Assembly: GCA_030867685.1 (NCBI GenBank) | Contig: JAQOWU010000008.1 | Span: 124,001-188,000, forward strand | Direction of reading: 5' to 3' | Length of the DNA: 64,000 nt | Source of the DNA: Wickerhamiella versatilis | Lineage: Eukaryota | Shown here: in pieces, positions 958-63,398 of the stretch | Layout: every line of letters starts with the position of its first letter | Numbering within the stretch: the first letter of the stretch is position 1 | Made by a program: the position numbers and the translations under genes | Notes under the pieces: model-generated | The model's input: the letters and a program-made list of their open reading frames with translations, nothing else | What the model was told of the DNA's origin: nothing | Databases searched by the model: none

Positions 958-2463
958 AACCAGTCTCAGGTAGTTTAAAATTTAGCAATAACTAGTGCCT
1001 TTGAGTCTCCTTGTTTTTAGTTATTCAAAATCTACAATATAGGAGCGTTAGAAATTGCTTTGTTATTTTGTATCAGAAATAACCCTTAGTATTTCGAGAG
1101 TTCAGTCGTGACAAGGATATCGAAGCACTCCTACCGTTTGATATAGTATTCGCTCTTATGATTTATCTATTTATCTCCACTATCAAAAGCAAATTAGACT
1201 TTATAAATGCCGCATGACTTAGAAGTACCGATATTAGGCCAATATTTATAAGGCTTCTGATCAGGGATAGTGTAGTTTGGTGCTCAGAAAGCGTTCTTAC
1301 AACACTTTTTCTTTTCTCCACTCACTTGAAGCTGGCCGATAGTCAGTATGGTGAATGCTGTGTTATGCTCCGGCATCTTGGGGCACATGCCCCCGGTCAC
1401 ATCCCTTACCCATGGAACGCTGGCTCAGAGAAACCCTAGCTATAGCGAAGCTACTACGAATTGTCTCATCAATCGAGATATCAGAATTGAACGGTAGTTT
1501 TTTTACTATGAGTTTATTATTGTAAGTTAAAGTTGACGCTTAATGAAGTTAGAAAGCTCATTAGCTCAATACAGTAAGATTTACTTCATTTCCCGAGATA
1601 CCCCCGGTTGAAATAGGCGACAACTCGCAATCGTAATGTGATAAAAACTCAATGTAGAACTCAGATTTACCATTAAATGTGATTGATCCGTCATCAGTTA
1701 CTGCCCAGGTTGACTTAGTTGAATTGAAATCAGTTAGCATAAAAGCTTCCTGATATCCACCTGAGGCTTCAACGTAATTTTTTGGTCCAGGTTGTGACAG
1801 ATCGACTAGCCTTCCTTTATAAATTGCAAATTCATCTCCATAATCAGAAAAGACGCTAAAACTTGCTTCGTCGTAACGGAGTTTTGCTGATGAGACCGAA
1901 TTCGCGGCGCAGGCTACATAACCCCTGTAACTGCTCACGGAAATGTTGAACGGACTAGTAGTCCAATTTCCCGTCGCACCAGCACAGGAATTCAAGGTGA
2001 AAGCAGAAGCTAAAAGATTTGAAAGCTGCATTTCAGAATATTTCTTCTTTGGTATTTCTCGCAGGGGTGGACGTAAAAATCCGATCGGATGACAAATATA
2101 TAATCTCGCATAATCCTGCTTGTGGTCGGCAGTTTATGAAAATCTTATCGCCTGTCTGATATTTAGATATATCTTAAATATTGCGAGTGATAAAATGCCT
2201 ATGTGTTTTGTTTTAAGCTAAGAAACGTTTAACAAATCGATCTATACCATACCTTTGATGACAGTTCAGCGACGATCACAGCGTAATCAGACTTCTGAGT
2301 CGAAAAAAATTGGCTAGTTTGTTATACTTAAACTAAACGCATTTGTGGTATTAGAGATAGCAATATCTTTGCTTTGTCGAAATATTTCCGTACTTTGTTT
2401 CTTTGAAAATCATCTGTTGCAGTAACCTTTTATTATTCTTATCACTTTGCCACTCGATTCAGC
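958..2463 (+). repeat. Copy 1 of a ~1.5 kb direct segmental duplication (copy 2 at ~17943-19455)
   Basis: Colinear high similarity across coding and non-coding sequence. Shared stretches include acaatataggagcgttaga and ttcgagagttcagtcgtgacaaggat, and both copies end ttattattcttatcactttgccactcgattcagc. Confidence 0.95.
1561..2031 (-). CDS. Small secreted protein (156 aa), probably related to PhiA/Pga31-like cell-wall proteins; paralog of 18545-19018
   Basis: Signal-like N-terminus, N-glycosylation sequons and two mature Cys. The WAVTDDGSITFNGxxxFY motif is present, and the ORF is intact in both duplicate copies. Confidence 0.8.
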   Translation of the reverse strand: MQLSNLLASAFTLNSCAGATGNWTTSPFNISVSSYRGYVACAANSVSSAKLRYDEASFSVFSDYGDEFAIYKGRLVDLSQPGPKNYVEASGGYQEAFMLTDFNSTKSTWAVTDDGSITFNGKSEFYIEFLSHYDCELSPISTGGISGNEVNLTVLS

Positions 2464-2805
2464 TAGCTATCAACGTGTAACATCAGGAATGAAGCAGTAA
2501 AAAACAGTTAGCAATCGAATGTAGACCATGGAAAAGCAGTTAGGGAACATGAGGTGTAAGGTCAACATCGTTATACTCAGAGGTCCTTTCTGTCTTTCTA
2601 TCGACTCTATCACTATCCTATTAGTATATATTGATAATAGATCTCCTCAACTCAGATCGATGATTAGACTGCTCTCCGCTCTGGGATACTGATGCAAAGG
2701 AAACAGGATGCATCATTTGCGTATATTTGAGACCATCTTTAGTTGTTTCCGATTATCCCCTTCGGAAAACAACCACTATATGTATCAACATATACTGTAT
2801 CTTCC

Positions 2806-2925
2806 AGCTACGGCCATATCCAGCAGGTAACTGGGCTTCCCGTCCGATCAGCCATACATAAGCTGCTGAGAGCCTGATTCAGTATTACGGTGGGAGACCA
2901 CGTGAGAACGGCAGGTGCTGTAGTT
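2806..2925 (+). rRNA. 5S rRNA gene (dispersed copy)
   Basis: About 120 nt. The 5' agctacggc pairs with the 3' gctgtagtt (helix I). Conserved ccatatc, cgtccgatc and agtattacggtgggagaccacgtgagaac are present, followed by an oligo-T Pol III terminator. Confidence 0.95.
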
Positions 2926-3747
2926 TTTATTTTTACTTTTTGTATCCTGTATGGCAGAGTTCTACCCAATTATCAATTCTATGGTCTGATTTTATTGAAA
3001 GGTTTTGGATAGAGAGAGTTAATACCAGTAGACAATTAGAAATTGATTATGCTTCGGGAATGCAAGATACCCTAATGCTATTTCATATTTCGTCCAATTA
3101 ATCACATTCAAGCAATACTGAAGCCAACCTGCTGCGATATCTATGCGAAGAATTTCAAATATTAACCAACTTAGAATTATCGGACGTACCAAGACAAGTC
3201 CTACTAACATTCATAATGTGGCGTATCATACTATAGAACTAGTAGTCTGAAAATGTAATCTGACATGGAAAATCACATCATTACTATAGTGAGGTACCAC
3301 AATTAAGTTGCACCCCGATAAACCAAATACATATTGAAGCCGTAGCTTATAGTGTCCAGGCTAGATTTCGGCAAAGACCACAACAAATATTGGATCTATT
3401 TGACTTAGTTTTCTTTCACAGCTTACCACAGGTCCTAAAGGTAATGGGTTTGAGCACCTCACTAATGCGAGTTATCTTGTGTTGTATTGTTCAAATAGCG
3501 AATAGCGCTCGTTGGCTACTAACACATTGCTCATTCTAGTCCCACGACTTACGATGAGACAAAGAAATGATGCACAGAACTAGGAATATACCGAAAATTA
3601 TTCAGTCAGAAGCCCTGAAACTGTAGGCTACTTCGTATTGTTCAATCACTTATGTGATTGTTACTAATATTCGCGTATCCATATTTACATCCTATGCTTT
3701 TATCCTTGAAAGAGAGGATGTGTCACTACATCAGGCTGGGTGGAGGG

Positions 3748-9903: not shown

Positions 9904-10344
9904 ATGATATCCCGGTTTATTTCCTCGTTGACGGTCTTTGCTCTTTCCCTTGCAGACGAGACAGTTTCTCTCATCACAGAATCAAGCGAACCTGGCCTAA
10001 GTGCACTGGGACTGAGTGGGTCTCATGTCGGACCTACAACAAATATAGTTTTTCTCACGAACGAGCATAATACTTACTTCCTCTCTGACGCAGATTCCTC
10101 AATCTACGACCTCTCCACTGCTGGTCAGAGGTACAACATGACGGCCTACAAAGGCGAAAATGGTGGCGATGTTCTTTTGAACCAAGGCGTAGCGGGTATT
10201 CCCGTCAAAGCAGAGAACGGTTATCTCACGGTGGACGGGGACGAAACTTTCTATGGTTTGGACTTTGGTAACAGCACGTGGATGCTCCTGCCTGTTGATG
10301 TCACAGGTTCCTCACCTCTTAAGATTAAAGTATCTCCAGCCTAG
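9904..10344 (+). CDS. Small secreted Pga30/Pga31-like protein without a GPI tail; paralog of 60286-60924
   Basis: Signal peptide. Segments align by eye with the 60 kb protein: LADETVSLITESS vs LADYNVTLVTESS, GYLTVDGDETFYG vs KYLTVNGSTTFYA, and PLKIKV vs PVKVKI. Confidence 0.8.
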   Translation: MISRFISSLTVFALSLADETVSLITESSEPGLSALGLSGSHVGPTTNIVFLTNEHNTYFLSDADSSIYDLSTAGQRYNMTAYKGENGGDVLLNQGVAGIPVKAENGYLTVDGDETFYGLDFGNSTWMLLPVDVTGSSPLKIKVSPA

Positions 10345-13449: not shown

Positions 13450-16400
13450 ATGACCTCAGAGAAAGCGGTCTCACCAGATGATACCGCAGAGAAGTCGGGG
13501 TCTGATGAAGCTTATGCATATAATAGTGGCCCCGATACAGAGAGTATTCGGCATGTTGCACGTAGCTTATCAGGACTGTCAACTGGCACGGAACCAAAGA
13601 GCTCCCAGTACGGCGACTACGAGAATCCTATTGACTCGCAAAACCCTCGACTTGATCCTAATTCACCTGAGTTTGATGTAAAATATTATTTTAAAAACAT
13701 GGTGCGGCTTTACCGCTCAGATCCTGAGCGTTATCCTGAGTCCAAACTTGGGGTGGCGTTTCGGGATCTCGAGGCGCATGGGGTTAGCCAAAGTACGAAC
13801 TACCAGTTGAATTGTGGAAATCTCCCGATTTGGCTCTTCGAACAAGCTCTTGAGTACCTGGGCAAAGGTGAAGGTTCTCCTGTGGAAATTTTGAAACCAA
13901 TGGATGGATGTATCAATCCTGGAGAGCTCTGTGTAGTCCTAGGTCGTCCAGGAGCAGGGTGTTCGACATTTCTACGAACATTGGCAACCCAAACGTATGG
14001 GTTTAAGGTGGGCAAACAGAGCAAGTTGAGTTACATGGGGCTTTCCCCGCAAGAGATTCATACAAAGTATCGCGGGGAGGTAACTTACTGCGCAGAATCG
14101 GAGTTGCATTTTCCCACTTTAACAGTCGGTGATACCCTGGAATTTGCTGCGCGGATGAAGACACCGAGTAACCGGCTTCCTGGGCTTAGCCGTAATATGT
14201 ATGCAAGGACCATGCGCGATGTGGTCATGGCCATGTATGGACTGTCTCATACAGCAAATACAAAGGTAGGAAGTGATCTTGTACGTGGCGTGTCGGGTGG
14301 TGAACGTAAACGTGTCTCAATTGCCGAGCTCACACTCACTGGAGCGTCGTTGCAATGCTGGGATAACTCTACAAGAGGCCTCGATTCTGCAACTGCCCTC
14401 GAATTTATCCGTACTCTACGTTTGCAGGCAGAAACAGTACAGACTGCGTGCTTGGTTGCCGTGTATCAAGCGTCCGATGAGATGTATTCGCTGTTTGACA
14501 AAGTGATAGTGCTCTACGAGGGTTATGAAATATTTTTTGGTCCCGTAACTGAGGCTAAAAAGTTTTTCTACGAGATGGGATGGCAGCCCAAACCTCGCCA
14601 ATCCACACCCGACTTCTTGACTTCCCTCTCTCAGCCTTCAGAACGCCAGCCTCGCGAAGGCTACGAGGATAAAGTTCCCCACACAGCGGAAGAGTTTTAT
14701 CAATTATGGAAGGAGTCAAGTGCACACAAAGATTGTGTGAGGGAAGCAGATGCATTTATGGAGAAATACAGCAGCGATACAACTGAAAAAAGAGATTTTG
14801 AGGCATCCTTTGACAAGCGTAAATCGAAGAGATTACCACGAAGTGTACCGTACACGGTTAATTGGCCCACTCAAGTCAAGGAACTATGCTTAAGAGGCTG
14901 GAAGAGAATGGAAAGCGCTCCAGAAATGGCACTAACCACCCTAATTGGCCATGTTGTCATGGCGTTTGTAATTTCTTCGATGTTCTACAATACCACCCAG
15001 AAGGTTGATGGTAAATACACCACAAACAGCTTTTATGGCCGCACTGCTCTACTCTTTTTTGCTCTTTTGTTTAATTCGTTTTCATCTCAACTTGAGATTT
15101 TTGCAGTGTTTGAGGCACGACCAGTGGTTCAGAAACATCATATGTATGCATTTTATCATCCCACTGTTGATGCTTTGGCCTCGGTTTTAACTGAGTTTCC
15201 TAATAATACCCTGGCAAACTTACTATTCAATCTCATTATATACTTCCTTGGCGATCTACGCCGGGAACCAGGAAATTTCTTTTTTTTCCTGTTTATGAAT
15301 TTCATTACATCCCTGTTTATGCAGAGTTTTTTCCGGACAATCGCTGCAGTTACTAACAGCGTGACGCAAGCAATGGTGCCGGCCGGGGTTTTGTTGCTAG
15401 CATTGACTATATTCACAGGATTTGTGATTCCTGTGAACCGGATGCATGGCTGGTGTCGGTGGATTAATTACTTGGACCCATTGGCATACTCATACGAGGC
15501 ACTAATGACCAACGAATTTCATAACTACGACTATTTATGCTACCCAGAGTCATCATTCGCACCTCTCCCCCCTAGTCAAGGAGCCCAGGGTCTTGGGTTT
15601 GTGTGTACGACAACAGGATCTAAGCCAGGTTCAGAAACAGTCCTTGGGGACGACTATCTCAGTGCACAATATGAGTACTACTTTGCCCATCAATGGCGAA
15701 ACATAGGTATCATCATTGGGTTCTTCTTTTTCACACTGGGTCTCTACTTGCTTCTGGTATACGTAAACCCAGGTGCACGGACCAAAGGTGAAGTGTTGGT
15801 ATTCCCACATAAGGTTTTGCGCCGTATTTTGAAAGAGAAGAAAGAAGGTGGTAAAAGCAAAGATGGCGGAGTGGCTGAGAAAGGAAGAGTAAGTGCAAAG
15901 GATATTGAAAATGAACAGCAGCAAGTTGCGGATAACTTGCTAGAGTCATCTGATGAAATATTTTACTGGAAAGACCTTTGCTATGATATAAAGATAAAAA
16001 AAGAGCCACGAAGAATCCTTTCGTATGTCGATGGCTGGGTAAAGCCGGGCACCATTACGGCTCTGATGGGTGCTACAGGTGCTGGTAAAACAACATTGCT
16101 CGATACCCTTGCTAATAGGGTTAAAATGGGCGTAGTTCATGGTCAGCTCTATGTGAATGGGACCCCACGCGACAATGGTTTCCAGCGAACAACTGGATAC
16201 TGTATGCAGCAAGATTTGCACCTCGAAACTGCAACTGTTCGCGAAGCCCTCGAATTTTCTGCTGTACTGCGACAACCGTACTCCACTCCAAAGAAGAAAA
16301 GCTGAAATATGTCGAAAATGTCTTGAAAATACTGGAAATGGAGTCCTATGCAGATGCCGTTGTAGGCGTTCCTGGTAGTGGTCTCAATGTTGAGCAGCGA

Positions 16401-17954
16401 AAGCGATTGACGATTGGCGTTGAGCTTGCTGCCAAACCCAAGCTGCTGCTCTTTTTAGACGAGCCAACATCAGGCTTAGACTCACAAACGGCATGGTCTA
16501 TTTGCCAGCTCATCAAGAAGCTGTCTAATGCTGGGCAGGCGATTCTGTGTACCATCCACCAACCCTCAGCTTTGTTGTTGGAGCAATTTGATCGTTTGCT
16601 TTTCCTGGCAAAGGGAGGACGGACAGTTTATTTTGGTGATATTGGTCCAAACTGCTCTACCCTAGTCAATTACTTTGAGTCTAAGGGTAGCCAGCCTTGT
16701 GCGCAAGATGCGAACCCGGCAGAGTGGATTCTAGATGTCGTTGGCGCTGCGCCGGGCTCTCATGCCCTGAAAGATTGGCCTGACGTATGGTTGCATAGCT
16801 CAGAGCGTCAAGCGGTTCGCCAGGAAATTGACAACCTCATGAAACAGTTTGGGGCATCCGAATCTAACGTCAATAATGACAAAGAGAGTCAACGGGAATT
16901 TGCTGCTCCTTTCTGGTTGCAGTACTGGCTCGTACTTCATCGAATATTCCAACAATACTGGCGGACACCGTCGTATATCTGGGCTAAGTTAGGGTTGAAC
17001 ATTTTTTCAGCGCTTTTCAACGGATTTGTTTTCTTCAAGGCAGACACTTCTATACAAGGGATGCAGAATTTACTGTTCTCCATTTTTATGTTTACAGTAG
17101 CTCTGCCATCAGTTGTCCAGCAGTATCTTCCAGTGTATGGAGCCACCCGTGATCTTTACGAAGCTCGAGAACGTCCGTCAAAGATTTTCTCCTGGCAGTC
17201 TTTTATGCTAGCTATCCTCTCCGCTGAAATTCCTTGGCAAATATTTATAGGTACAATCTCCTTTTTGTGCTGGTACTATCCTGCAGGATTATATTCGAAT
17301 GCTGAATTTGCCGGCCAGAAGACTGAACGAGGTGGCTTGACATATTTCTACATATTCCTGTTCTTCATATTTGCGGTTACACTGGGCCAACTTGCAGGGG
17401 CAGCCATAGATAATGTGGATACTGCTTCGAATATTGCAATGATTATGTTCACCCTGGCTATGTTATTCTGCGGTATTCTATCCACAGAGCAATCTACGCC
17501 GAGATTCTGGATCTTTATGCTAAGATTAAGTCCTGTTCGCTGGTGGATAGATGGCTTGATGGCTCTTGCTGTGGCAGATGTTGAAGTGCACTGTTCCGAC
17601 AATGAGCTGGTCACCATTTTCGCGCCTAACGGAACCTCATGCCAAAGCTACCTAGATCAATATTTCAAAAATTCCACTGGTTATCTTTCAAATGCTGGCC
17701 AGGATGGTTCGTGTCAATTCTGTTCCATCGGACAGACCAATGTATACCTCTCGGAGTTTGACATTTCTTATAGCCAAAGGTGGCGTAATCTTGGTTTCTT
17801 TTGGTGCTACATTGGATTTAATATTGTTGGGACAATATTCCTCTACTGGCTAGCCCGGGTGCCTAAGAAAGGCACCCGGAAAGCGAAGGTCACAGAGGAA
17901 GAGTTGAACACAAAGGATCTAGCTTTAAATCAAGCGAATGCATCTCAGCAGTAG
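13450..17954 (+). CDS. PDR/CDR-family full-length ABC multidrug transporter with a single-base frameshift at ~16290
   Basis: NBD1 has GRPGAGCST, VSGGERKRVSIAE and CWDNSTRGLD. NBD2 has GATGAGKTT, LNVEQRKRLTIGVEL and LDEPTSGLD. Two TMDs are present. Adding one A at 16290-16292 joins the two ORFs as ...STPKEEKLKYVENVLKILEM. Confidence 0.93.
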
Positions 17955-19455
17955 GCCATTATAAAATATTAGCAATCAATAGTGCCTTTAAGTCTCATGG
18001 TTTTTAGTTATATATAAACCACAATATAGGAGCGTTAGAGATTGCCTTGTTATTTTGTATCAGACGTAACCCTTAGAATTTCGAGAGTTCAGTCGTGACA
18101 AGGATCTCGAGGCACTCCTGCCATTTGATATAGTATTCGCTCTTATAATTTATCTATTTATCTCCACTATCTAAAGGAAATTAGACTTTATTATGTCGTA
18201 TGACTTAGTGGCCAATATTTATAAGGCTTCTATGGAGTCAGATCAGGGATAGTGTAGTTTGGTGCTTAGAAAAGCGTTCTTACAACACTTTTTCTTTTCT
18301 CCACCCACTTGAAGCTGGCCGATAGTCAGTATGATGAATGCTGTGTTACGATGCGCCATCTTGTGGGACATGCCCCCCCGGTCACCTCCCTTACCCACGC
18401 TGGCACAGAACAACCCGAGCCCTAGCTATAGTGAGGCTACTACATATTGTCTCATCAATCGAGATATCAGAGTTGAGCGGTAGTTTTTTTTCCTATGAAT
18501 TTATTATTGTAAGTTATAGTTGACTCTTGATGAAGTTATAAAGCTCAGTTGCTTAATACAGTAAGATTTACTTCATTTCCCGAGAAATCGCGGGTTGCAA
18601 CAGCCCCCAACTGGCAATCGTAATGTGGTACAAAATCAATATAGAAAACAGAGCTACCATTAAATGTGATTGATCCGTCATCAGTCACTGCCCAGGTTGA
18701 CTTAGTTGAATTGAAATCAGTTAGCTTAAAAAGTTGCTGATATCCATCTGAGGCTTCAACATAATTTCTTGGTCCAGGTTGTGACAGATCGACTAGCCTT
18801 CCTTTCGAAATTGCAAATTCATCTCCATAATCAGAAAAGAGATCAAAATATGTTGCGTAATAACGGAGTTTTGCCGATGGAACCGATCTCTCAGCGCAGT
18901 CTATAAAGCCCGAGTAACTGCTCACGGAAATGTTGAACGGACTAGTAGTCCAATTTCCCGTCGCACCAGCACAGGAATTCAAGGTGAAAGCAAAAGCTAA
19001 AAGATTCGAAAGCTGCATTTCAGAATATTTCTCCTTTGGTATTTCTCGCAGAAGTGAACGAACAAAGCCGATCGGGTGACAAATATATAATATCGTATAA
19101 TCCTACTTGTAGTCAGCAGTTTATGACAGTCTTATCGCCTGGCTGATATTTAGATCTATCTTAAATATTGCGAGTGATAAATGCCTATGCTTATTGTTCT
19201 AAGCTCAGAAACATTAAACAAATCGATCTATACCATACCTTTTGATGACAGTCCAGCGACGATTGCCGCGTAATCAATCAGACATCTAAGTCTAAAAAAA
19301 ATTGGCTAGTTCGTCATACGTAAACAAAACGCATTTGTGGTATTAGAAATAGCAATAACTTCGCTTTGACGAAATATTTCCGTAGGTTGTTTCTTTGAAA
19401 ATCATCTGTTACAGTAATCTTTTATTATTCTTATCACTTTGCCACTCGATTCAGC
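17943..19455 (+). repeat. Copy 2 of the ~1.5 kb direct duplication
   Basis: Colinear with 958-2463 and begins at the last codons of the ABC transporter gene. Confidence 0.95.
18545..19018 (-). CDS. Small secreted protein (157 aa), paralog of 1561-2031
   Basis: About 33 amino-acid differences from copy 1 by manual count; the frame is intact. Confidence 0.8.
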   Translation of the reverse strand: MQLSNLLAFAFTLNSCAGATGNWTTSPFNISVSSYSGFIDCAERSVPSAKLRYYATYFDLFSDYGDEFAISKGRLVDLSQPGPRNYVEASDGYQQLFKLTDFNSTKSTWAVTDDGSITFNGSSVFYIDFVPHYDCQLGAVATRDFSGNEVNLTVLSN

Positions 19456-47358: not shown

Positions 47359-48789
47359 TCAAATAAGTTGCACAAGGATTGCTCCCAAAATAGTGCTAGC
47401 TCCAAGAGACAAGATATTCGCAGCATTCGCAACAGCAGGAGCCGACGTAGACTCAGCGGCAGTCACAGGAGCGCTGCTAGAGGCACCAAGAGTAGCATTT
47501 ACTGGAGAGGAGCTTGCCGCAGTCTTAGTACAGTCACATTCCTCAATACTCAGGGTTGTGGCTTCGGTAACAGTGTATGTCGAAGATCCATGCGTGAAAG
47601 TGGTGGGCGAAGGGCAGTAAGTCGTGAAGTAAGTAACATTTGCAGTTGCCACGGCTTCAGATGCAGCAGACCCGGAAGAGGTGGCATTCTTAGCAGCAGG
47701 GCTGGTAACAACACCAGAGTTTACAGCCGAGCTAACCTTGGTAGCAGGTGCACTAGCTGCGCTCGAAGCCGAAGACGCATTCTTCACGAGCTTTGGGGTA
47801 TAAGCATGCAGCTTCGAGGGAGGTTGACGGTCATGATTAACCACGAAAACCGTACCATCGGGGCCAACATCCACCTGGTTCGAGTTGGAGCCGCTCTCCA
47901 ATTTATCGACAACCTCCAAAGACTCGGCATCGATCACAACAGTGACACCCTGAGTTCGACTGGCGTAGTAGACCAGATCATTAACTGGTTCATAGATAGC
48001 ATTAAGTCCAGTGGCACCAGTCTCAATCTTCTTGATAACATTGCCCGATTTTGTATCAAGTACAACGGAAGCATTGGTACCCTGACCGACAACGAAAAGA
48101 TGGTTGCGCTTAGCATCTAATGCGACACCTGAAGAAATCTTAATATCGTCACTAAGATCGTAAAGAGTGACGCTGTTATCGTTCTTTAGGTCGATGGCAG
48201 CTGCCTTAGCCGGCGAATAACTGACGGTGTAAAGGACGCCAGCATCTTGATCAACCACAGACTGCATTACGATGCCGAATTGCCCGTGGCTAGTCACATT
48301 GATAGTGTCAACCTTTTCATAAGACTCCGTACTGAATACATCGATCATGCCAGCCTCAGCCCCTGCGTAAACGTTTGACCCATAGAAGGACAGATCTCTC
48401 GCCGGACCAGAGAGCGCCTTGGCCGGGAGTTGCTTGACAAGGGATAGATCAGAAGTCTTGTAAGCAGCAATCGAAGACTGCTTCCCATTTGTGACCCAGA
48501 CATTTCCAGTATTTTGATCAACCTTGAGACCATAAGTTGAGAACATTGTACCATTTATCGAGTCAGGGTTAACGTACTCGACAGGCTTGAATGAATCGAT
48601 ATCAAATTTGATTATGTTTGAATCGGTTTTAGTGGCCGAGGTCAAAATCACGGATCCCGTGGTACCGTCATATCCAGCCTGGTAAACACTTTCGTTGTCA
48701 AAGGTGAAAGCCTTCTCACTGAACGTGAAACTACGAGATGCCGCCGCAGCGGAAACAAACCCTGCCGTCAACAAAGGAAAGTTCACCAT
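47359..48789 (-). CDS. GPI-anchored cell-wall protein with an N-terminal YncE/YVTN-like beta-propeller
   Basis: Signal peptide, then propeller blades (YGLKVDQNTGNVWVTN, SGVALDAKRNHLFVV, LNAIYEPVNDLVYYA). These are followed by a Ser/Ala stalk, an FTTYCP...TTLSIEECDCT cell-wall repeat and an ANAA plus hydrophobic GPI signal. Confidence 0.88.
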   Translation of the reverse strand: MVNFPLLTAGFVSAAAASRSFTFSEKAFTFDNESVYQAGYDGTTGSVILTSATKTDSNIIKFDIDSFKPVEYVNPDSINGTMFSTYGLKVDQNTGNVWVTNGKQSSIAAYKTSDLSLVKQLPAKALSGPARDLSFYGSNVYAGAEAGMIDVFSTESYEKVDTINVTSHGQFGIVMQSVVDQDAGVLYTVSYSPAKAAAIDLKNDNSVTLYDLSDDIKISSGVALDAKRNHLFVVGQGTNASVVLDTKSGNVIKKIETGATGLNAIYEPVNDLVYYASRTQGVTVVIDAESLEVVDKLESGSNSNQVDVGPDGTVFVVNHDRQPPSKLHAYTPKLVKNASSASSAASAPATKVSSAVNSGVVTSPAAKNATSSGSAASEAVATANVTYFTTYCPSPTTFTHGSSTYTVTEATTLSIEECDCTKTAASSSPVNATLGASSSAPVTAAESTSAPAVANAANILSLGASTILGAILVQLI

Positions 48790-50486: not shown

Positions 50487-51290
50487 ATTTGTGCCAGCTC
50501 AGCATATCCTATGGAATTGTGGACGTGAAGTTAAAAATGAAGAATCCCCAAGAGATATACTCCTGTCGATCCTGCTGTTATTTCATCTGAAGGTGGTGAT
50601 TCTGGGTTTCTTGGTGATGTGCTTTCAGCTGAGTCTGCGACCACTGCTACTGGAGCATCAGCTGAATCTGGGAAAGGTGCTGGACTATCTACTGCTGGAG
50701 AAACTGGTGTTGGTCTCGGAAGCGCAGATCCCGATGAGACTGGTGGTGCCGCCGGAAGCAGTATTAAAACCGTAACTGCCGCCAGCAGAAGTGAAGCTGC
50801 CTCTATACCAACTGATACTGCTGAGATTGAGAGTAATTTCATGAATCTGCCACCGGCACTAAGAGTCGTGACTCTAATAGCTCTACTAAGAATAATTAAT
50901 GTAGCAATAGTGCCGGTGAAACAAGCGTTGTTGATGACTCCTTAATTCAAAAGATAGCGATGCAGCATTGGGTGTAGGCCTAGGAACATTTGGGTCATTC
51001 ATTGGGCGGCTTCTACTTCTGTAGCTACTTTTCAACTCAATTACCGGATGATGGATACTAGCTACAACTTCAGACTCACAACATGAGTCAAGCTCTACTT
51101 AAATATTACGTGAAACCGCGGTGATCTCGAAGTACATATCTCTAATTGATATCATCTTTGTGTAATGCACCTTATTTTTTTAATTAGGGATTTATAACGA
51201 GACGGTACCCATATTACTACTGTATATGTCTTATAATTCTTTTGTTTTGGTCTATATTTGCTACAAGCACACTACCAGCAGATGTGAACA

Positions 51291-55531: not shown

Positions 55532-56218
55532 ACAATGTGTCTGAAATGAATCATCCGTATGAGTAACAAGCAGCAGAGATTATGACAATCTTTTTGTGAG
55601 AAACTTTCAATATAGAAGTATCTCCATTTCAAAAGAGTACATGAAGATGAGTTGTAAAGTTATTCGGCATTCCAATAAAATTTTAGGTTCTTAAAGTTAA
55701 CCCGTTATGTTCTACAATCTATGGTAGGGAGTTATGTCCAATCCTCCTGTATTTCCTATTACCTATCTTGTATAGCTGCTCTCCGTTGTGGCAAGCAGAA
55801 ATATAGACTTACAATTTCTGCCGGCTGTCCTGGACTCCTCCCTATAGTAAAAATATTTCCGTATTCCTCTGCTTGCCACATAAGGCGCACCAAAGCCTTG
55901 AAGTGGAGTTTAGACCGGTACTGTATTTAAACAAATACATTTAGATATAGGCTTCATAGCCACGATGCTCTCACTGAAATAGACAATAGCCGATGTCGTC
56001 ATACTGTAGTCGACAACAATATGGCTGGGTTCTTAGGAGTGATGATTATCGAGCTTTTGAGCGCAATATATGGTGACAATTGCTTTCATCAGCCAAAAGA
56101 TATTGATGCACATTGCGACCGAAACCTTATGCATCCTTGTTAACATGTTTATAACCTGAGGAATTATGCTAAAAAAACACCAAAACCAAAAATTATTTAG
56201 GTCATATATGACTCAATT

Positions 56219-57436
56219 TTATGAATTCGTAGAGGGTTCCGTGTAATTGCACTGATTGGGGAACCAGCGGTCAGTGAGTGGCTGAGGGAACATCTCATAT
56301 TCAATCATAAGCCCCATATCGATAGATATCCGCTCTTCTGTCTTGTATGTCCAAAACAACCAACCGGCTCCACTATGTTCGAAGGCATCAAGTTGAGCTT
56401 CGATGAACCTACGCGTATCGTTTCGATATTCTGGTGACCAATAGTTAGAGTTGATGTCAAGAACCCCTTCACAGCCATGAACATTCTCTGAAAACTGGCT
56501 AAGAATCCTTTCACACTCTGACCGTGTTCCTGAGAATTCTCCTACGAAGTGACGCCTAGGGTCATGAGAGTACCAAATTGGGGCGTGCACACAAACCTCT
56601 GGGACATTTTCAGAAACCGGTTGGGCACCCGTAAGATTGGTAACCGAAATATCGTACCAATGGTAATCTACCGCAACCCTACTGTCATTGAGGAACCAAT
56701 CATTCGGATCAGGAGCGCCCTCACCGAAAACATTCATTACGATACTTGTATTTTTAGGAATCTCAGCCATAGCTCGCTCGTAGTATGAATACAGGACATC
56801 GTAGAATTTATCCCCAAAATTCGTGTAATTATAAACAAGTCCGAGGGGGACATCTATCGGGGATATTGGCTCGTTCAGAAGCTCTATACCAGTCAAAACA
56901 TCCTGCCACTTTGTCGTCGCATTTCCAACGATTCTGCGAACAACCTCGACTGTGTCGTTGACATAAGTAGCGTTCTCTGCCCAAATTCCACTGGTATCAC
57001 CAAGATTCTCGTAATTTTCCCAGCCTGGAGCCACGTGGATATCAAGTACTACCTGCATACCATATTCACGGGCCCACTCCATGGCAAGATCAATATAGGG
57101 CAGCTGACCGTCAATGTAAGGGTCATCATCACGTAGAAGGAACGCGTAGTAGCCAATAGGCAGGCGAATGAAATTAATTCCCCACGACGCCATCTTCTCA
57201 AAGTCTGACTTCTGGATGAAGTTCTTCCAGTGCGGCTCAAGAACCTCTCGAGAACGTTCTTTACCGAGATCTAAAGTTAACGAGTATTCTGACAAGGCTG
57301 AAGTGCCATTAAATAGCGAAGGTGTCAAGAAAAACTCCACGGTGAGCCATGACCCGAGAGAAACTCCTCTTATCGGCGAGCTATAATCAATCAGAGCGCT
57401 GGAAGCAGACAATAGAGCACATAATACCCCCCACAT
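56219..57436 (-). CDS. Secreted GH5 exo-1,3-beta-glucanase (Exg1-like)
   Basis: IRGVSLGSWL, IRLPIGY, acid/base NEP, nucleophile GEFS and GWLFWTYKTE. Confidence 0.92.
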   Translation of the reverse strand: MWGVLCALLSASSALIDYSSPIRGVSLGSWLTVEFFLTPSLFNGTSALSEYSLTLDLGKERSREVLEPHWKNFIQKSDFEKMASWGINFIRLPIGYYAFLLRDDDPYIDGQLPYIDLAMEWAREYGMQVVLDIHVAPGWENYENLGDTSGIWAENATYVNDTVEVVRRIVGNATTKWQDVLTGIELLNEPISPIDVPLGLVYNYTNFGDKFYDVLYSYYERAMAEIPKNTSIVMNVFGEGAPDPNDWFLNDSRVAVDYHWYDISVTNLTGAQPVSENVPEVCVHAPIWYSHDPRRHFVGEFSGTRSECERILSQFSENVHGCEGVLDINSNYWSPEYRNDTRRFIEAQLDAFEHSGAGWLFWTYKTEERISIDMGLMIEYEMFPQPLTDRWFPNQCNYTEPSTNS

Positions 57437-60285: not shown

Positions 60286-60924
60286 TCACAAAAGCAAAAT
60301 AGCCCCGGCAATAGCCGCAGCTGCAGAGCCCAGTCCGGTAGACGCGGCGCCATTAGCAATAGGAACAGAGGATGTTGCGGAAGCTACAGGGACGGTCGAT
60401 GAAGCCGACACCGACGAATTTGTTCCATTGGTACTATTACTGCTGGGTACAATCTTGACCTTCACGGGGTACGCATTAGATGCCTCACTCGCCAAAAGTT
60501 CGTAACCCGTATTACTGTAGCTGTAAGCATCTCCAGTGAACTTGCCAGCGTAGAAAGTAGTGCTGCCATTGACTGTGAGGTACTTATTATCAACAAGGAT
60601 TGGGGTACCCGAAATAACACCCACACTAATCGCATTGTACTCCGGGAACACCGTGAGGTTCCACTTCTGTACATCAGTGCCGTCGACCGTTCCGACAGGA
60701 ATTGGTAGATAAACTGAATTGGTTTCTGGGGAGTATTCAAGAGACCCTTCATTGGTTGGGGCCGAATCAGCAAGGAATAGGAAATTTATGCCAGCACCCT
60801 CGTGGAGTGGTATAAGGCTCTTTGCATTAACCTCATCATGGCTTGACTCCGTAACAAGCGTCACATTATAATCAGCCAAGGCCAGTGAAGCAGCTGCCAA
60901 AATTGTTGGGATCTGAAATTTCAT
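60286..60924 (-). CDS. GPI-anchored cell-wall protein, Pga29/30/31-like
   Basis: Signal peptide, HEGAGINFLFL motif and DAYSYS, followed by a Ser-rich stalk, ANGA and a hydrophobic tail. Confidence 0.85.
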   Translation of the reverse strand: MKFQIPTILAAASLALADYNVTLVTESSHDEVNAKSLIPLHEGAGINFLFLADSAPTNEGSLEYSPETNSVYLPIPVGTVDGTDVQKWNLTVFPEYNAISVGVISGTPILVDNKYLTVNGSTTFYAGKFTGDAYSYSNTGYELLASEASNAYPVKVKIVPSSNSTNGTNSSVSASSTVPVASATSSVPIANGAASTGLGSAAAAIAGAILLL

Positions 60925-62207
60925 TTTTCTTCCTTGATCGATTTACTTACCCACTTCTTTTAAGCTGTTCTCATGGGGTTAGGGTGTCAATTTATGTTTT
61001 TGCGATAAAACGGCTCCAGACATTATTTTTTTGAAACCTGAAAACATATATAAACATATGGATCAAAGTTTTAGTTATAGTCAGTGTATATCAGCGATTT
61101 TGCGCCATTATATCTGGAATAATCTTATTTGTTATTATGGCGACATTGCACATTTTGCATAGAGATGTTAGGGTGTATCCCTGTTCGGATATTCTGACAG
61201 TTCGGTTACGATGAACTGAGGAAAAGTTCGGCGAGGAGCTGTCAATCAGAGACTTTTTTACCACGAGAGTTTATAGATAAAGATTTTTGAGAGAGAGAGA
61301 AAAAAAATTGTGTATGAAGGCAATAGTTGCTGTTGTAATGGCATGTACCTATCCGGCCGGGGGGATGCCAAAAATAGAAGCGACAACGCAATCCCAGCTG
61401 CACATACGAATGGCCCTGTCTGGATTACTACGAGAGGTAGATAGTTCTATAGAGACTTTTTAGGAAAGTTATCATTAGTAAATTAATTGCGTTAGTTTCC
61501 ATCTATATACCTAAATTATGATAGTAATTTGATATCATGCAGTGCAATATTTGATGGGGTGTAGCACCAGAACATCCAACATTTGAGATCTTGGTTATAC
61601 AAATAATAAGGTGGATCAGAATGCTATTCCAATACAGGCTATTCTACAATCCACTGGCAATGAATGTTTTTTAGAGGAGGTCTTAAATACTGAGCTGCTT
61701 CGGATGCCCACTTAAGAATAATTTGTTTACTGAACAAAAAACAATCAAAATCAATTATAAATGAAGCAGGAATGCTAGAGAGATAAGGTATGGCACACAT
61801 CCTTTTTGGTCAATGTTTTTCTAATCAGACTAAAGTCTAGCCAGAATCCTAGTCAAATCTGATTGTTAGTCACCGATTTAACTAATGTTCTGGGTCTTCG
61901 TACCTAATTAGTGTCGTTAAATGCATTAATGTGCGTGTCGTTTGAGCTTTTGGCCCTGTTCTCATTATTGAAGCTTGTTTGGCCTTTGTTGGATATAACC
62001 ACACACCGATTGCTATGTGAGCCGATAGCTCGTTCTGAAAACGTTGTCACTAGCTGAAAATATTAGTTTGAAATATTGAGAGACAATCATATCAACAGTT
62101 TGACATCTCTACTAGACTGCTGGTGAACGACACATGCAGTTATTCTCACTTATATCATTTGGCTCTATCTTACGGCTAAGTGGAGTGTATATCAAAGGTC
62201 TATTTAA

Positions 62208-63398
62208 TTAAGCAAAAAGCATCATTAAAAACATCAATATGGATGGAAGCTGCGCCGATGACATTGCGGCATTAGCCACAGGTACCCCTTGCGACGACGT
62301 TCCTTGGTTTGGTGTACTTGGAATGGGGGTATTTTGCCCACTGATAGTGTTGTTAGTGGAACCATTTACAAATGATTGATTTCCTGTAGTATTAGATGGT
62401 GCATCAAGCCATTTTGCCGTGGAACCGTCTACTTTCACTGCCAGGCGGAGAACACGCATAGTCGCCGTAATGTAAACCCATTTTCGCCCTTCACTATCCT
62501 TTCCGAATGCCAGATTGGAGGTGGCTGAGGAGCTCTCGATAAGAATTTTCCCCAGCAACTCACCCTTGGGGTTGTAAATGTGAATACCTTCCGCACTGCT
62601 ACTCCACAGATTGCCGAATTCATCAACCTTGATGCCATCTGGAATGCCTGGTGTGACAGCCTTAAAAAGTTTTCCATTTTTCAAATTACCGTCGCTGATC
62701 TCATACGCATAGATCTGTGGGACATGGCCTCCGTCGGTGTTTTGCGGAGTATCTGTCACGTAGAGTATACTTTCATCTGGGGACAATGCCAGACCATTGG
62801 GCTGAAGAATCTCGGGGGTGTTGAGGCGAACAAGTTCTTTTGTAGTGGGATTGAAGCGGAAAAACCACTTTCCTTCGAGTTCTTGCTTGCCTCCATATCC
62901 CTGCCTCAGATCAGTTAACCCGAATGCCGAATCCGCAAACCAAATATCGCCATTACTTGACACCACCACATCATCTGGACCATTCAGGCGCTTACCCTCA
63001 AAACTATCAACAAGTGTGACCCATGTGCCATTTAGCTCCCGCCGCAAAATCGACCTTTCTCCCTGTCCAGCTGCTACTAGTCTTCCCTCGCGATCTACAG
63101 AATTTCCATTTTCAAAGTTTGATGGTGACGATATAACATTTATCCCATCTTTCTCGGTCCAATTTACTGCCCGGTTACGCATAACCTCACTGAAGACAAG
63201 TGTACCATCTTTCAGGACTACTGGTCCCTCAGCCCACACAGACTCATTAGCTATGACCTTAGCTGGAATCGAGGTATCGACGAGATCCGAAAATATGCTG
63301 CTGTTTGAGACATACGTTACACCCTCATTTTTCCCGTGAACACAGAAGGCCGAGACTGTAAATAGGTACGAGCAGAAAGCAAGCGGACTTACCCACAT
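62208..63398 (-). CDS. Gluconolactonase (SMP-30/Gnl family, bacterial-type) with signal peptide and putative GPI tail
   Basis: WAEGPV, ENGN, GKRLNGPDD, PNGLALSPDE and PDGIKVDEFGNLWSS motifs. An Asn/Thr/Ser linker, ANAA and a hydrophobic C-terminus follow. Confidence 0.9.
   Translation of the reverse strand: MWVSPLAFCSYLFTVSAFCVHGKNEGVTYVSNSSIFSDLVDTSIPAKVIANESVWAEGPVVLKDGTLVFSEVMRNRAVNWTEKDGINVISSPSNFENGNSVDREGRLVAAGQGERSILRRELNGTWVTLVDSFEGKRLNGPDDVVVSSNGDIWFADSAFGLTDLRQGYGGKQELEGKWFFRFNPTTKELVRLNTPEILQPNGLALSPDESILYVTDTPQNTDGGHVPQIYAYEISDGNLKNGKLFKAVTPGIPDGIKVDEFGNLWSSSAEGIHIYNPKGELLGKILIESSSATSNLAFGKDSEGRKWVYITATMRVLRLAVKVDGSTAKWLDAPSNTTGNQSFVNGSTNNTISGQNTPIPSTPNQGTSSQGVPVANAAMSSAQLPSILMFLMMLFA

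Follow-up and report, generated by a model that had tools for sequence, protein, structure and literature searches.

How a lactonase of bacterial type came to be built like a yeast cell-wall protein, and what it might do there, is the question raised by the gene P0001 of Wickerhamiella versatilis. The gene lies at 62208–63398 (−) in a stretch of 64,000 nucleotides (GCA_030867685.1, contig JAQOWU010000008.1, positions 124,001 to 188,000), hereafter the window, which is the end region of a yeast chromosome (G000:C8:124001-188000, on a contig of 4.6 Mb). All coordinates are positions in the window. The original prediction, made from the letters alone, had proposed a bacterial-type gluconolactonase supplied with a fungal signal peptide and a glycosylphosphatidylinositol (GPI) tail, and had regarded it as the second graft of one kind within 15 kb. 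The best overall explanation, which we consider probable, is a bacterial SGL-family lactonase that would be anchored in the wall and open aldonolactones.

Gene Structure, Expression and Fold

P0001 encodes 396 amino acids, and no intron was seen either in the open reading frame (ORF) translation or in raw RNA reads, which came from another strain and were mostly 95–99% alike. Depth over the ORF was 45–71 in all three raw RNA runs, compared with 0–0.3 at 61001–61600, and no splice-type joint fell inside the ORF in any of them. The locus is flanked by yeast genes, its third-position GC content (GC3, 0.47) is similar to that of the neighbouring genes, and a single contig of another run carries P0001 together with its flank. 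The gene is integrated in the host chromosome and transcribed; it is a real, intronless member of the lactonase family.

The Pfam family SGL (PF08450) covers residues 55–311 with an E value of 9.5e-34 (117.5 bits against a cut-off of 26.3). An AlphaFold model from an 18-row alignment had a mean predicted local distance difference test score of 78.6, with a well-predicted core, disorder at residues 336–385 and a C-terminal helix at 384–395. Foldseek gave 3DR2, a Xanthomonas enzyme named "exported gluconolactonase", as the best match to the model (E 3.4e-26, root-mean-square deviation (rmsd) 2.3), and model and match both indicate a six-bladed propeller. Pfam, tree, model and Foldseek place this core at residues 18–325 (62424–63347, −). 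The folded part stops near G325 (62424–62426), in agreement with the predicted end near 62425. Eight NxS/T sequons were counted, which bears out the many that had been noticed: four in the core (N32, N51, N79 and N123) and four in the tail. The host genome holds four further SGL genes, none of them close to P0001 and none tailed.

Bacterial Origin of the Core

In a homology search with P0001, the best 120 of 2961 matches were considered. Among the matches listed, the first five proteins were 58–96% identical to the query and were followed by proteins at 44–48% over 74–83% of its length; the latter included Pantoea, Rosenbergiella and Pseudomonas, and fungal names were absent. The regucalcin-type paralog at 1–860 reached 27% over 122 amino acids, so the core is nearer to bacterial proteins than to that paralog, as predicted.

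A tree of 60 rows was built from homology hits, bacterial-genome hits and relatives of the native lactonase, with three regucalcin-type paralogs of the host as outgroup. P0001 fell in a clade of six (support 99/99), which was united at 99/98 with 13 exported bacterial-type rows, five of them named by source, one via its cluster and seven without names. The bacterial relatives grouping with the P0001 clade were Pantoea, Rosenbergiella, Pseudomonas and Xylella. Fifteen native eukaryotic SGL lactonases formed a separate clade (100/98); the best named relative of the host's own native lactonase was from Wickerhamiella sorbophila. In an approximately unbiased (AU) test on 31 rows, forcing the P0001 clade to group with the eukaryotic lactonases cost 20.7 log units (p=0.002), so their monophyly was rejected. 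The phylogeny thus upholds a bacterial core, and the contrary outcome that the original prediction had itself named, a grouping with vertically inherited fungal lactonases, appeared neither in the tree nor in the AU test.

From these trees, the core of P0001 is a horizontal acquisition from bacteria, and a single transfer into an ancestor within the Wickerhamiella/Starmerella yeasts is almost certain. Because the P0001 clade is the sister of the 13 bacterial rows (87/83) and is not nested among them, the donor genus is not fixed. In a scan of bacterial genomes (GTDB), the best 80 of 582 relatives were all outer relatives and the nearest clade was unrepresented; a JGI scan gave five loci at 42–53%, none seen to be a yeast copy; and an order-level search around genome G002, made without a positive control, gave 0 of 401 at 1e-80.

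Origin of the Export Leader

A signal peptide is predicted at residues 1–17 (63348–63398, −) from hydropathy and from the −3,−1 rule, by which we presume cleavage between V-S-A and F. Its best 9-residue hydropathy is 2.29, and the distance from the initial Met to EGP, the motif of the first calcium ligand, is 57 residues in the tailed proteins, P0001 included. The 14 nearest bacterial-type relatives also begin with hydrophobic leaders (best 9-residue hydropathy 1.67–2.74), with 49–66 residues between Met and the first ligand in the 13 of them in which the motif could be located. For nine leaderless outer relatives, the corresponding values were 33–35 residues and 0.28–1.64. Since the near bacterial relatives have leaders of similar length, the donor protein would already have been exported and a grafted signal is not needed, so the proposed fungal signal peptide found no support, though a swapped-in one is conceivable. 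The simplest reading, and probably the right one, is that the endoplasmic reticulum (ER) signal of P0001 is a remodelled bacterial export leader. By these comparisons, of the two end parts only the tail is clearly new.

The C-Terminal Tail

The core is followed by 71 residues, hydrophobic end included, close to the predicted length of about 70. They consist of a disordered linker rich in Ser, Thr and Asn (residues 326–375; 62274–62423, −), delimited by model, composition and alignments and carrying four sequons, and of a 21-residue GPI-type signal (62211–62273, −). Between residues 331 and 375, Ser and Thr make up 31% and Asn 16%. The signal is predicted from a consensus pattern, with N376 as the omega site, two Ala, a spacer and ten hydrophobic residues. 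By the sorting rules in the available part of PMC4454578, in which Ser/Thr content, Val, Ile or Leu at omega-4/-5 and the lack of a basic pair direct a protein to the wall, the tail would point to wall and not membrane: V372 stands at omega-4 and a basic pair before omega is absent (A375/V374).

The pattern took its letter classes from the accessible text of PMC12387857. The repeat count in it is the one we presume to be usual. It was matched by eight of ten proteins in the clusters of the yeast clade, by 2 of 115 bacterial and by 1 of 120 fungal homologs, so the predicted GPI signal is borne out by a test that homologs outside the clade rarely pass. Among native tails of the host it matched 24 of 27 and missed three. 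The two misses in the clade's clusters were the tail-less P0006 and P0122, whose shifted tail reflects either a fault in the assembly or a form that is naturally released.

The tail is present in five members of the clade, and the tail-less P0006 is the sister of all five (99/99). P0006 keeps both donor cysteines, lacks N32, N51 and N123, and ends in a short, unrelated extension. N32 and N51 occur in all five tailed proteins and in none of the 14 near bacterial ones; for N123, the counts are four of five and three of 14. This distribution fits a gain of the tail together with glycosylation sites in one later step, with loss in P0006 as a possible alternative. As a separate observation, all six clade members have C19 (63347-63342), which bacteria lack. 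Of the two cysteines that form a pair in the donor (positions 61 and 299; V61 region, 63218), only P0006 keeps both, and P0001 and P0002 have neither, so that C19 would be left unpaired or form an intermolecular bond.

The original prediction had read a common pattern from the motifs VPVANAA in P0001, VPIANGA in the wall-protein gene at 60286 and PAVANAA in the gene near 47 kb. All three are present as described. Nevertheless, AN at the omega site was found in 23 of the 27 GPI-type tails examined in the host genome, a set that was retrieved with the 47 kb tail and to some extent resembles it for that reason. Since AN is the host consensus, the likeness is not specific, and it does not speak for a common origin of the tails; that of P0001 has no detectable donor. 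Against the 47 kb and 60286 tails it scored z 0.9 and z 3.1, respectively, and its best DNA match was 33 bases at E 0.01. Even in comparison with three tailed but distant relatives, the P0001 linker gave z 1.3–2.0 against theirs without an alignment, as in a fast-evolving segment. Neither a TYCP repeat nor DNA homology to a native wall gene was found in P0001; the chimera P0146 and its paralog L094 do show such a repeat or homology.

A Second Chimera and Tail Shuffling

P0146 (47359–48789, −) is the other chimera of the window: homology and DNA identity resolve it into a YncE-like bacterial propeller head (about 47785–48738) and a native wall tail. The tail contains a TYCP repeat (47520–47649, −) with 75–80% DNA identity over 95–140 bases to native wall genes (matches at L095, L096, L098, L100, L133, L134 and L136); we take this repeat family to be of the Ccw12/Sed1 type. 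Non-yeast matches of the head were Paracoccus, Stenotrophomonas and Corynebacterium at 32–36%, and its Atlas neighbours were all bacterial. L094 (409-1818; G000:C7, near 2.433 Mb) likewise combines a YncE-like head, the repeat and a GPI-type tail. P0153, a tail-less YncE relative, falls inside the yeast clade at 88/85, unstarred, and both gain and loss of the tail are possible there. RNA depth over the P0146 head was 2500–2700 in two polyA runs, some 40 times the depth over P0001. In the supplement of PMC13376923, the gene syntenic to the 47 kb chimera is labelled "Native, cell wall protein SED1" with 1718–3643 transcripts per million (TPM), and one of the 14 W. versatilis rows labelled SED1, possibly the L094 paralog, is scored bacterial. 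Native tails can therefore hide foreign heads from screens for horizontal gene transfer (HGT), as the 47 kb chimera illustrates.

From the DNA identities, the 47 kb chimera is a better documented graft than P0001. The idea of two grafts of the same kind thus holds for the outcome, two bacterial heads with GPI-type tails, and not for the route, since only the 47 kb tail could be traced. The two genes are 13.4 kb apart. A meaning of this 13 kb spacing was considered and rejected, as both gene types cluster near contig ends.

Similar tails are widespread in the genome. The native wall protein P0147 (60286–60924, −) has a paralog, L095, whose two TYCP repeats are of the kind seen in the 47 kb tail. 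A short paralog of this family without a GPI tail lies at 9904-10344 (+), with a TAG stop inside the genome match. A tail-less GH5 exo-glucanase (56219–57436, −; assigned by Pfam) is 82% identical over all 405 amino acids to its paralog L150 (2545-5010), which has 417 further residues and a GPI-type end; from this alignment, the pair is a recent tail gain or loss. Tails of the same type occur on GH5, GH16-like, S10 (two), S28, aspartyl protease, phosphatase and phytase-like heads and also on Flo11 and PA14 adhesins; the TYCP/GPI tails lie on at least eight hydrolase genes of six kinds. Seven loci with hydrolase heads (L135, L141:1265-3235, L142, L143, L145, L146 and L147: phytase-like, GH16-like, two S10, S28, purple acid phosphatase and aspartyl protease) end in Ser/Thr-rich GPI-type tails, most with TYCP. 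The nearest clusters of the GH16 head were mostly ascomycete.

A search with the TYCP tail gave 71 matches, 34 loci by our grouping, from which 26 non-YncE GPI-type ORFs were examined; 24 of the 34 loci are no more than 400 kb away from a contig end, where 34% would be expected (p 1.5e-5). Acquired genes also gather near chromosome ends, according to the available sections of PMC13376923. Two omega-motif patterns gave six matches versus two in the control and 25 versus three; with the second, 20 of the 25 lie 18–34 codons before a stop, three of these without a hydrophobic end. In these partial TYCP and omega-motif scans, no bacterial-looking head was found except in P0001 and the two YncE copies; heads were judged by Pfam family and by eye, with further checks for GH16 and YncE. 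A tail search in 1.84 billion proteins, in which 15 of the 150 listed were scanned, gave no further bacterial head either; those 15 carried LysM/chitin-binding, GLEYA, HsbA, Asp and phytase-like heads. Of the roughly 30 GPI-type genes examined in this partial scan, three carry bacterial heads, which represent two independent cases.

As the same tails sit on fungal-type GH5, GH16, S10, S28, aspartyl protease and phosphatase heads, the proposed recurrent route for acquired genes is not supported. Judged by this genome, tail gain is part of a general shuffling of GPI tails that does not single out acquired genes: secreted proteins near chromosome ends exchange tails, and exported bacterial genes landing there would be caught too.

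Calcium Site and Substrate

Ligand positions were read from an alignment to Rpa3624, whose calcium ligands are E15, N123, N172 and D229 (PMC9843451). P0001 has the terminal acidic ligands of the SGL family, E57 (63228–63230, −; invariant, Rpa3624 E15) and D254 (62637–62639, −; Rpa3624 D229, which is also the proposed base), as well as N201 (62796–62798, −; Rpa3624 N172). The second position, D142 (62973–62975, −; Rpa3624 N123), is Asp in place of Asn in the P0001 clade only, so the E/N/N/D set of the XC5397 type is incomplete and its SPND motif reads GPDD. Asp was found there in six of six clade members and in none of 235 other homologs: Asn occupies the position in all 14 near and all 101 outer bacterial proteins, and the fungal homologs have it in 119 of 120 cases, with T in the remaining one. 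Changes of S140 to G or A and of D71 to E are typical of the clade alongside D142.

Since D142 is present in the tail-less P0006 too, the ligand change would predate the tail. Fixation of D142 across proteins that are 56–66% identical makes decay unlikely; in the core, mean column identity over six members is 73%. The change may adapt calcium binding to an acid surface or alter the substrate. Another position is changed in the tailed proteins: 13 of the 14 near relatives have His at 112, and all five tailed proteins have lost it.

For the substrate, the known relatives give the main guidance. XC5397 hydrolyses glucono-1,5-lactone in a calcium-dependent manner and cleaves 2-coumaranone too (PMC12362111, in the part available). 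The host genome encodes a gluconokinase above the curated cut-off. No secreted glucose oxidase was found, the three GMC oxidoreductases in the genome being without signal peptide as judged by eye, so a lactone would come from neighbouring organisms. Gene neighbourhoods within 1.5 kb of close lactonase relatives were inspected in Pseudomonas, in 5 of 301 genomes. A secreted protein of 190–207 amino acids without a Pfam family lies directly upstream in three of the five loci (L157, L160 and L161; G268, G125 and G228) and a LamB porin is near the lactonase in one, without giving a clue to the substrate. The suggestion that acyl-homoserine lactones (AHLs) might be attacked found no support, as two propeller lactonases, Rpa3624 and DrSOD, did not hydrolyse them in published tests, as far as the accessible reports go.

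Interpretation and Alternatives

In the reading that we prefer, the source would be a gammaproteobacterium associated with plants or insects. Its exported SGL lactonase, dependent on calcium, would have moved once into the Wickerhamiella/Starmerella ancestor, where the export leader would have turned into an ER signal. Later, in an order suggested by the tail-less sister, the Ser/Thr linker and GPI signal would have been added and the N-glycosylation sites of the core fixed. The protein is predicted to enter the ER, to be glycosylated, to be cut after N376 and to receive a GPI anchor, and then to be linked into the wall or kept at the outer face of the membrane; we consider this course, up to retention at wall or membrane, very likely. 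As its stalk measures only some 50 residues, its place may be the inner wall, the yeast counterpart of the periplasm. Calcium held by E57, D142, N201 and D254 would activate water and open the lactone ring, as in solved relatives. In a sugary, acid habitat, aldonolactones from other organisms (e.g., glucono-1,5-lactone) could be opened in this way and the acid imported to gluconokinase; spontaneous opening of the lactone is slow at low pH. Aldonolactone opening that feeds the gluconokinase route is, tentatively, the likeliest job, favoured because the closest characterised relative hydrolyses gluconolactone and gluconokinase is encoded.

Several results weigh against this reading. Both localisation and activity of P0001 are predictions from sequence. 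The change at D142 is one that leaves Rpa3624 with 0.1% efficiency when made as N123D (PMC9843451), so sugar-lactone activity is not to be assumed; the SGL annotation also frequently misnames the substrate (same source), and no glucose dehydrogenase lay within 1.5 kb of the five close Pseudomonas relatives. As for the tail, the GPI pattern is a rough test, as it missed all four tailed YncE chimeras; P0122, one of three members of the P0001/P0002 cluster, has lost the GPI signal through a shifted reading frame; and P0006, on which the order of events leans, comes from a 2.6 kb contig that may not be from a yeast. Finally, a donor search for the P0001 tail in the host genome returned only the tail itself (1/1), which leaves the word graft unsupported here. 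That result, together with the z of 0.9 against the 47 kb tail, the 33-base DNA match and the unrelated extension on the tail-less sister, would suit a tail formed on the spot, when the stop codon was lost and the frame ran on into A/T-rich DNA downstream, which then drifted to the host omega consensus. We think this possible, on balance unlikely: the linker cannot be aligned even among tailed relatives, so an old graft would be equally untraceable, recombinational exchange of tails is visible in the GH5 pair and the YncE genes, and the end of P0001 fits the host consensus closely.

The chemistry could also differ with origin and anchor unchanged. A shift of substrate to hydrophobic or aromatic lactones or esters by the Asn-to-Asp change, for surface detoxification or use of plant or microbial lactones, is suggested by D142, which is confined to the clade, and by G/A140 and E71, which are typical of it. 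Position D138 of Drp35 is, we presume, that of Rpa3624 N123. Drp35, grouped with the hydrophobic lactonases, has its proposed base D138 where Rpa3624 has Asn (PMC9843451), and the 2-coumaranone activity of XC5397 points the same way. Still, fold and sequence of P0001 are closest to XC5397 and 3E5Z (33–34%) and far from Drp35 (19%), and a single residue does not fix a substrate, so we regard this shift as unlikely, if worth keeping in mind. A weak or dead enzyme retained as a calcium-dependent wall protein binding lactones or sugars is less probable again. The N123D effect, the loss of His112 in the tailed proteins and the lack of lactonase activity in some SGL-like propellers (PMC13578688, available part) speak for it, against which stand the invariant E57, N201 and D254 and the conserved core, and a fixed Asp is easier to reconcile with selection on chemistry than with decay. 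AHLs are cleaved by paraoxonases, which have the same fold, and a surface position in a habitat shared with proteobacteria might make the destruction of such signals useful; quorum quenching is nevertheless very doubtful, given the inactivity of Rpa3624 and DrSOD on AHLs and the different fold of the best-known AHL lactonases. That the gene is a secreted fungal lactonase inherited vertically, or a bacterial contaminant in the assembly, is the most improbable reading of all. In its favour one could cite that the native fungal-type lactonase of the host is 34% identical to P0001 over 234 columns, and the view of the origin does rest on the best 120 of 2961 matches; under the sampling used, tree and AU test reject the former, while yeast neighbours, matching GC3, polyA RNA and the shared contig in another run argue against the latter.

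A bolder proposal, speculative and by our estimate rather unlikely, would join the two chimeras. Near chromosome ends, the GPI tail would act as a mobile cassette for display, which has taken up exported bacterial propellers on at least two occasions: the YncE-like one became one of the most highly expressed wall genes and is scored as native because of its tail, and the lactonase gained its Asn-to-Asp change and a new surface chemistry (e.g., on plant or competitor lactones). If true, bacterial contributions to yeast walls are undercounted.

Other Features of the Window

Strain-level indels were seen at 50798-51111, 55809-56027 and 61875-62120 (intergenic), which are skipped by reads or contigs of other strains. 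Between 36586 and 52484 there is a series of intronless, bacterial-looking genes (DsbA/FrnE-like, SDR, quinone oxidoreductase, beta-hydroxyacid dehydrogenase, GFA and YhhS-like MFS); the last is above the NCBIfam cut-off, and its syntenic row is scored native in the published table. A near-identical pair of small secreted proteins without a Pfam family is located at 1561-2031 (−) and 18545-19018 (−), 17 kb apart. At 13450-17954 (+), a PDR-type ABC transporter is split over two ORFs (951 and 538 amino acids), through an intron, a frameshift or an assembly error.

Comparison with Known Systems

The transfer itself is already catalogued. In Supplementary Data 6 of PMC13376923, W. versatilis gene 05527 is listed as "HGT Bacteria", K01053 and "Reinforcement", with 167–196 TPM in YNB and 54–64 TPM in YPD. 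Gene order is shared with that table over 12 consecutive genes, from a nitrilase to the SED1-labelled gene, and by gene order and annotation, not sequence, 05527 is very probably the ortholog of P0001. The tail, the anchor and the ligand change are absent from the parts of that work covered: the available main text has no mention of GPI, signal peptide, lactonase, chimera or cell wall. The main text of PMC11140947 (supplements outside the search) does not mention GPI, lactonase, signal peptide or chimera. No description of a GPI-tailed bacterial lactonase or YncE in yeast was found in the open-licence literature, some supplements of PMC13376923 being outside the search. Two candidate precedents were dropped: the trypanosome trans-sialidase, presumably a parallel case, and TCLP1. 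The available text of PMC4413820 does not state a bacterial origin for the former, and the latter is not GPI-anchored according to that of PMC4472858.

The bacterial genes known from these yeasts mostly encode metabolic enzymes, and P0001 would be a case of refitting for a eukaryotic surface. The refitting can be followed in steps, with the leader kept or remodelled, sequons gained, the donor disulfide lost and the GPI tail added, the tail-less relative being a likely earlier state. The fixed D142 offers a one-residue handle on whether activity shifted after the transfer.

The closest structures, XC5397 (Xanthomonas campestris, 3DR2) and the Deinococcus protein 3E5Z, share with P0001 the six-bladed fold (33–34% identity, rmsd 2.3), the equivalents of E57, N201 and D254, and an export leader; P0001 differs in the Asp at the second ligand, the eukaryotic sequons, the linker and the GPI-type signal. 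The native fungal SGL of lactonohydrolase type (host L002, AkeP-named) is of the same superfamily at 34% identity, but it belongs to the separate clade, has Asn at 142, and the GPI pattern is found in one of 120 such homologs. The invertase Suc2 of the Wickerhamiella/Starmerella clade is also a bacterial enzyme acquired by these yeasts and acting outside the cell; unlike P0001 it is released, and no GPI tail is reported for it in the available part of PMC9044934. The Awp1/Hyr1/Iff wall proteins resemble P0001 as yeast GPI proteins with a head family that is mostly bacterial (93% of the network), whereas they are old and widespread, have no active site, and are not argued to be transferred in the sections available of PMC8746771; P0001 represents a narrow, traceable transfer with the metal site kept. 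Engineered surface display with the Sed1 anchor, as far as the accessible descriptions go, puts a foreign enzyme on a yeast GPI wall tail, of which the 47 kb chimera is a natural version; P0001 is natural as well, with a tail that is not of the TYCP type. Within this range, P0001 combines two known kinds, a bacterial transfer into the Wickerhamiella/Starmerella clade and a wall enzyme with a predicted GPI anchor.

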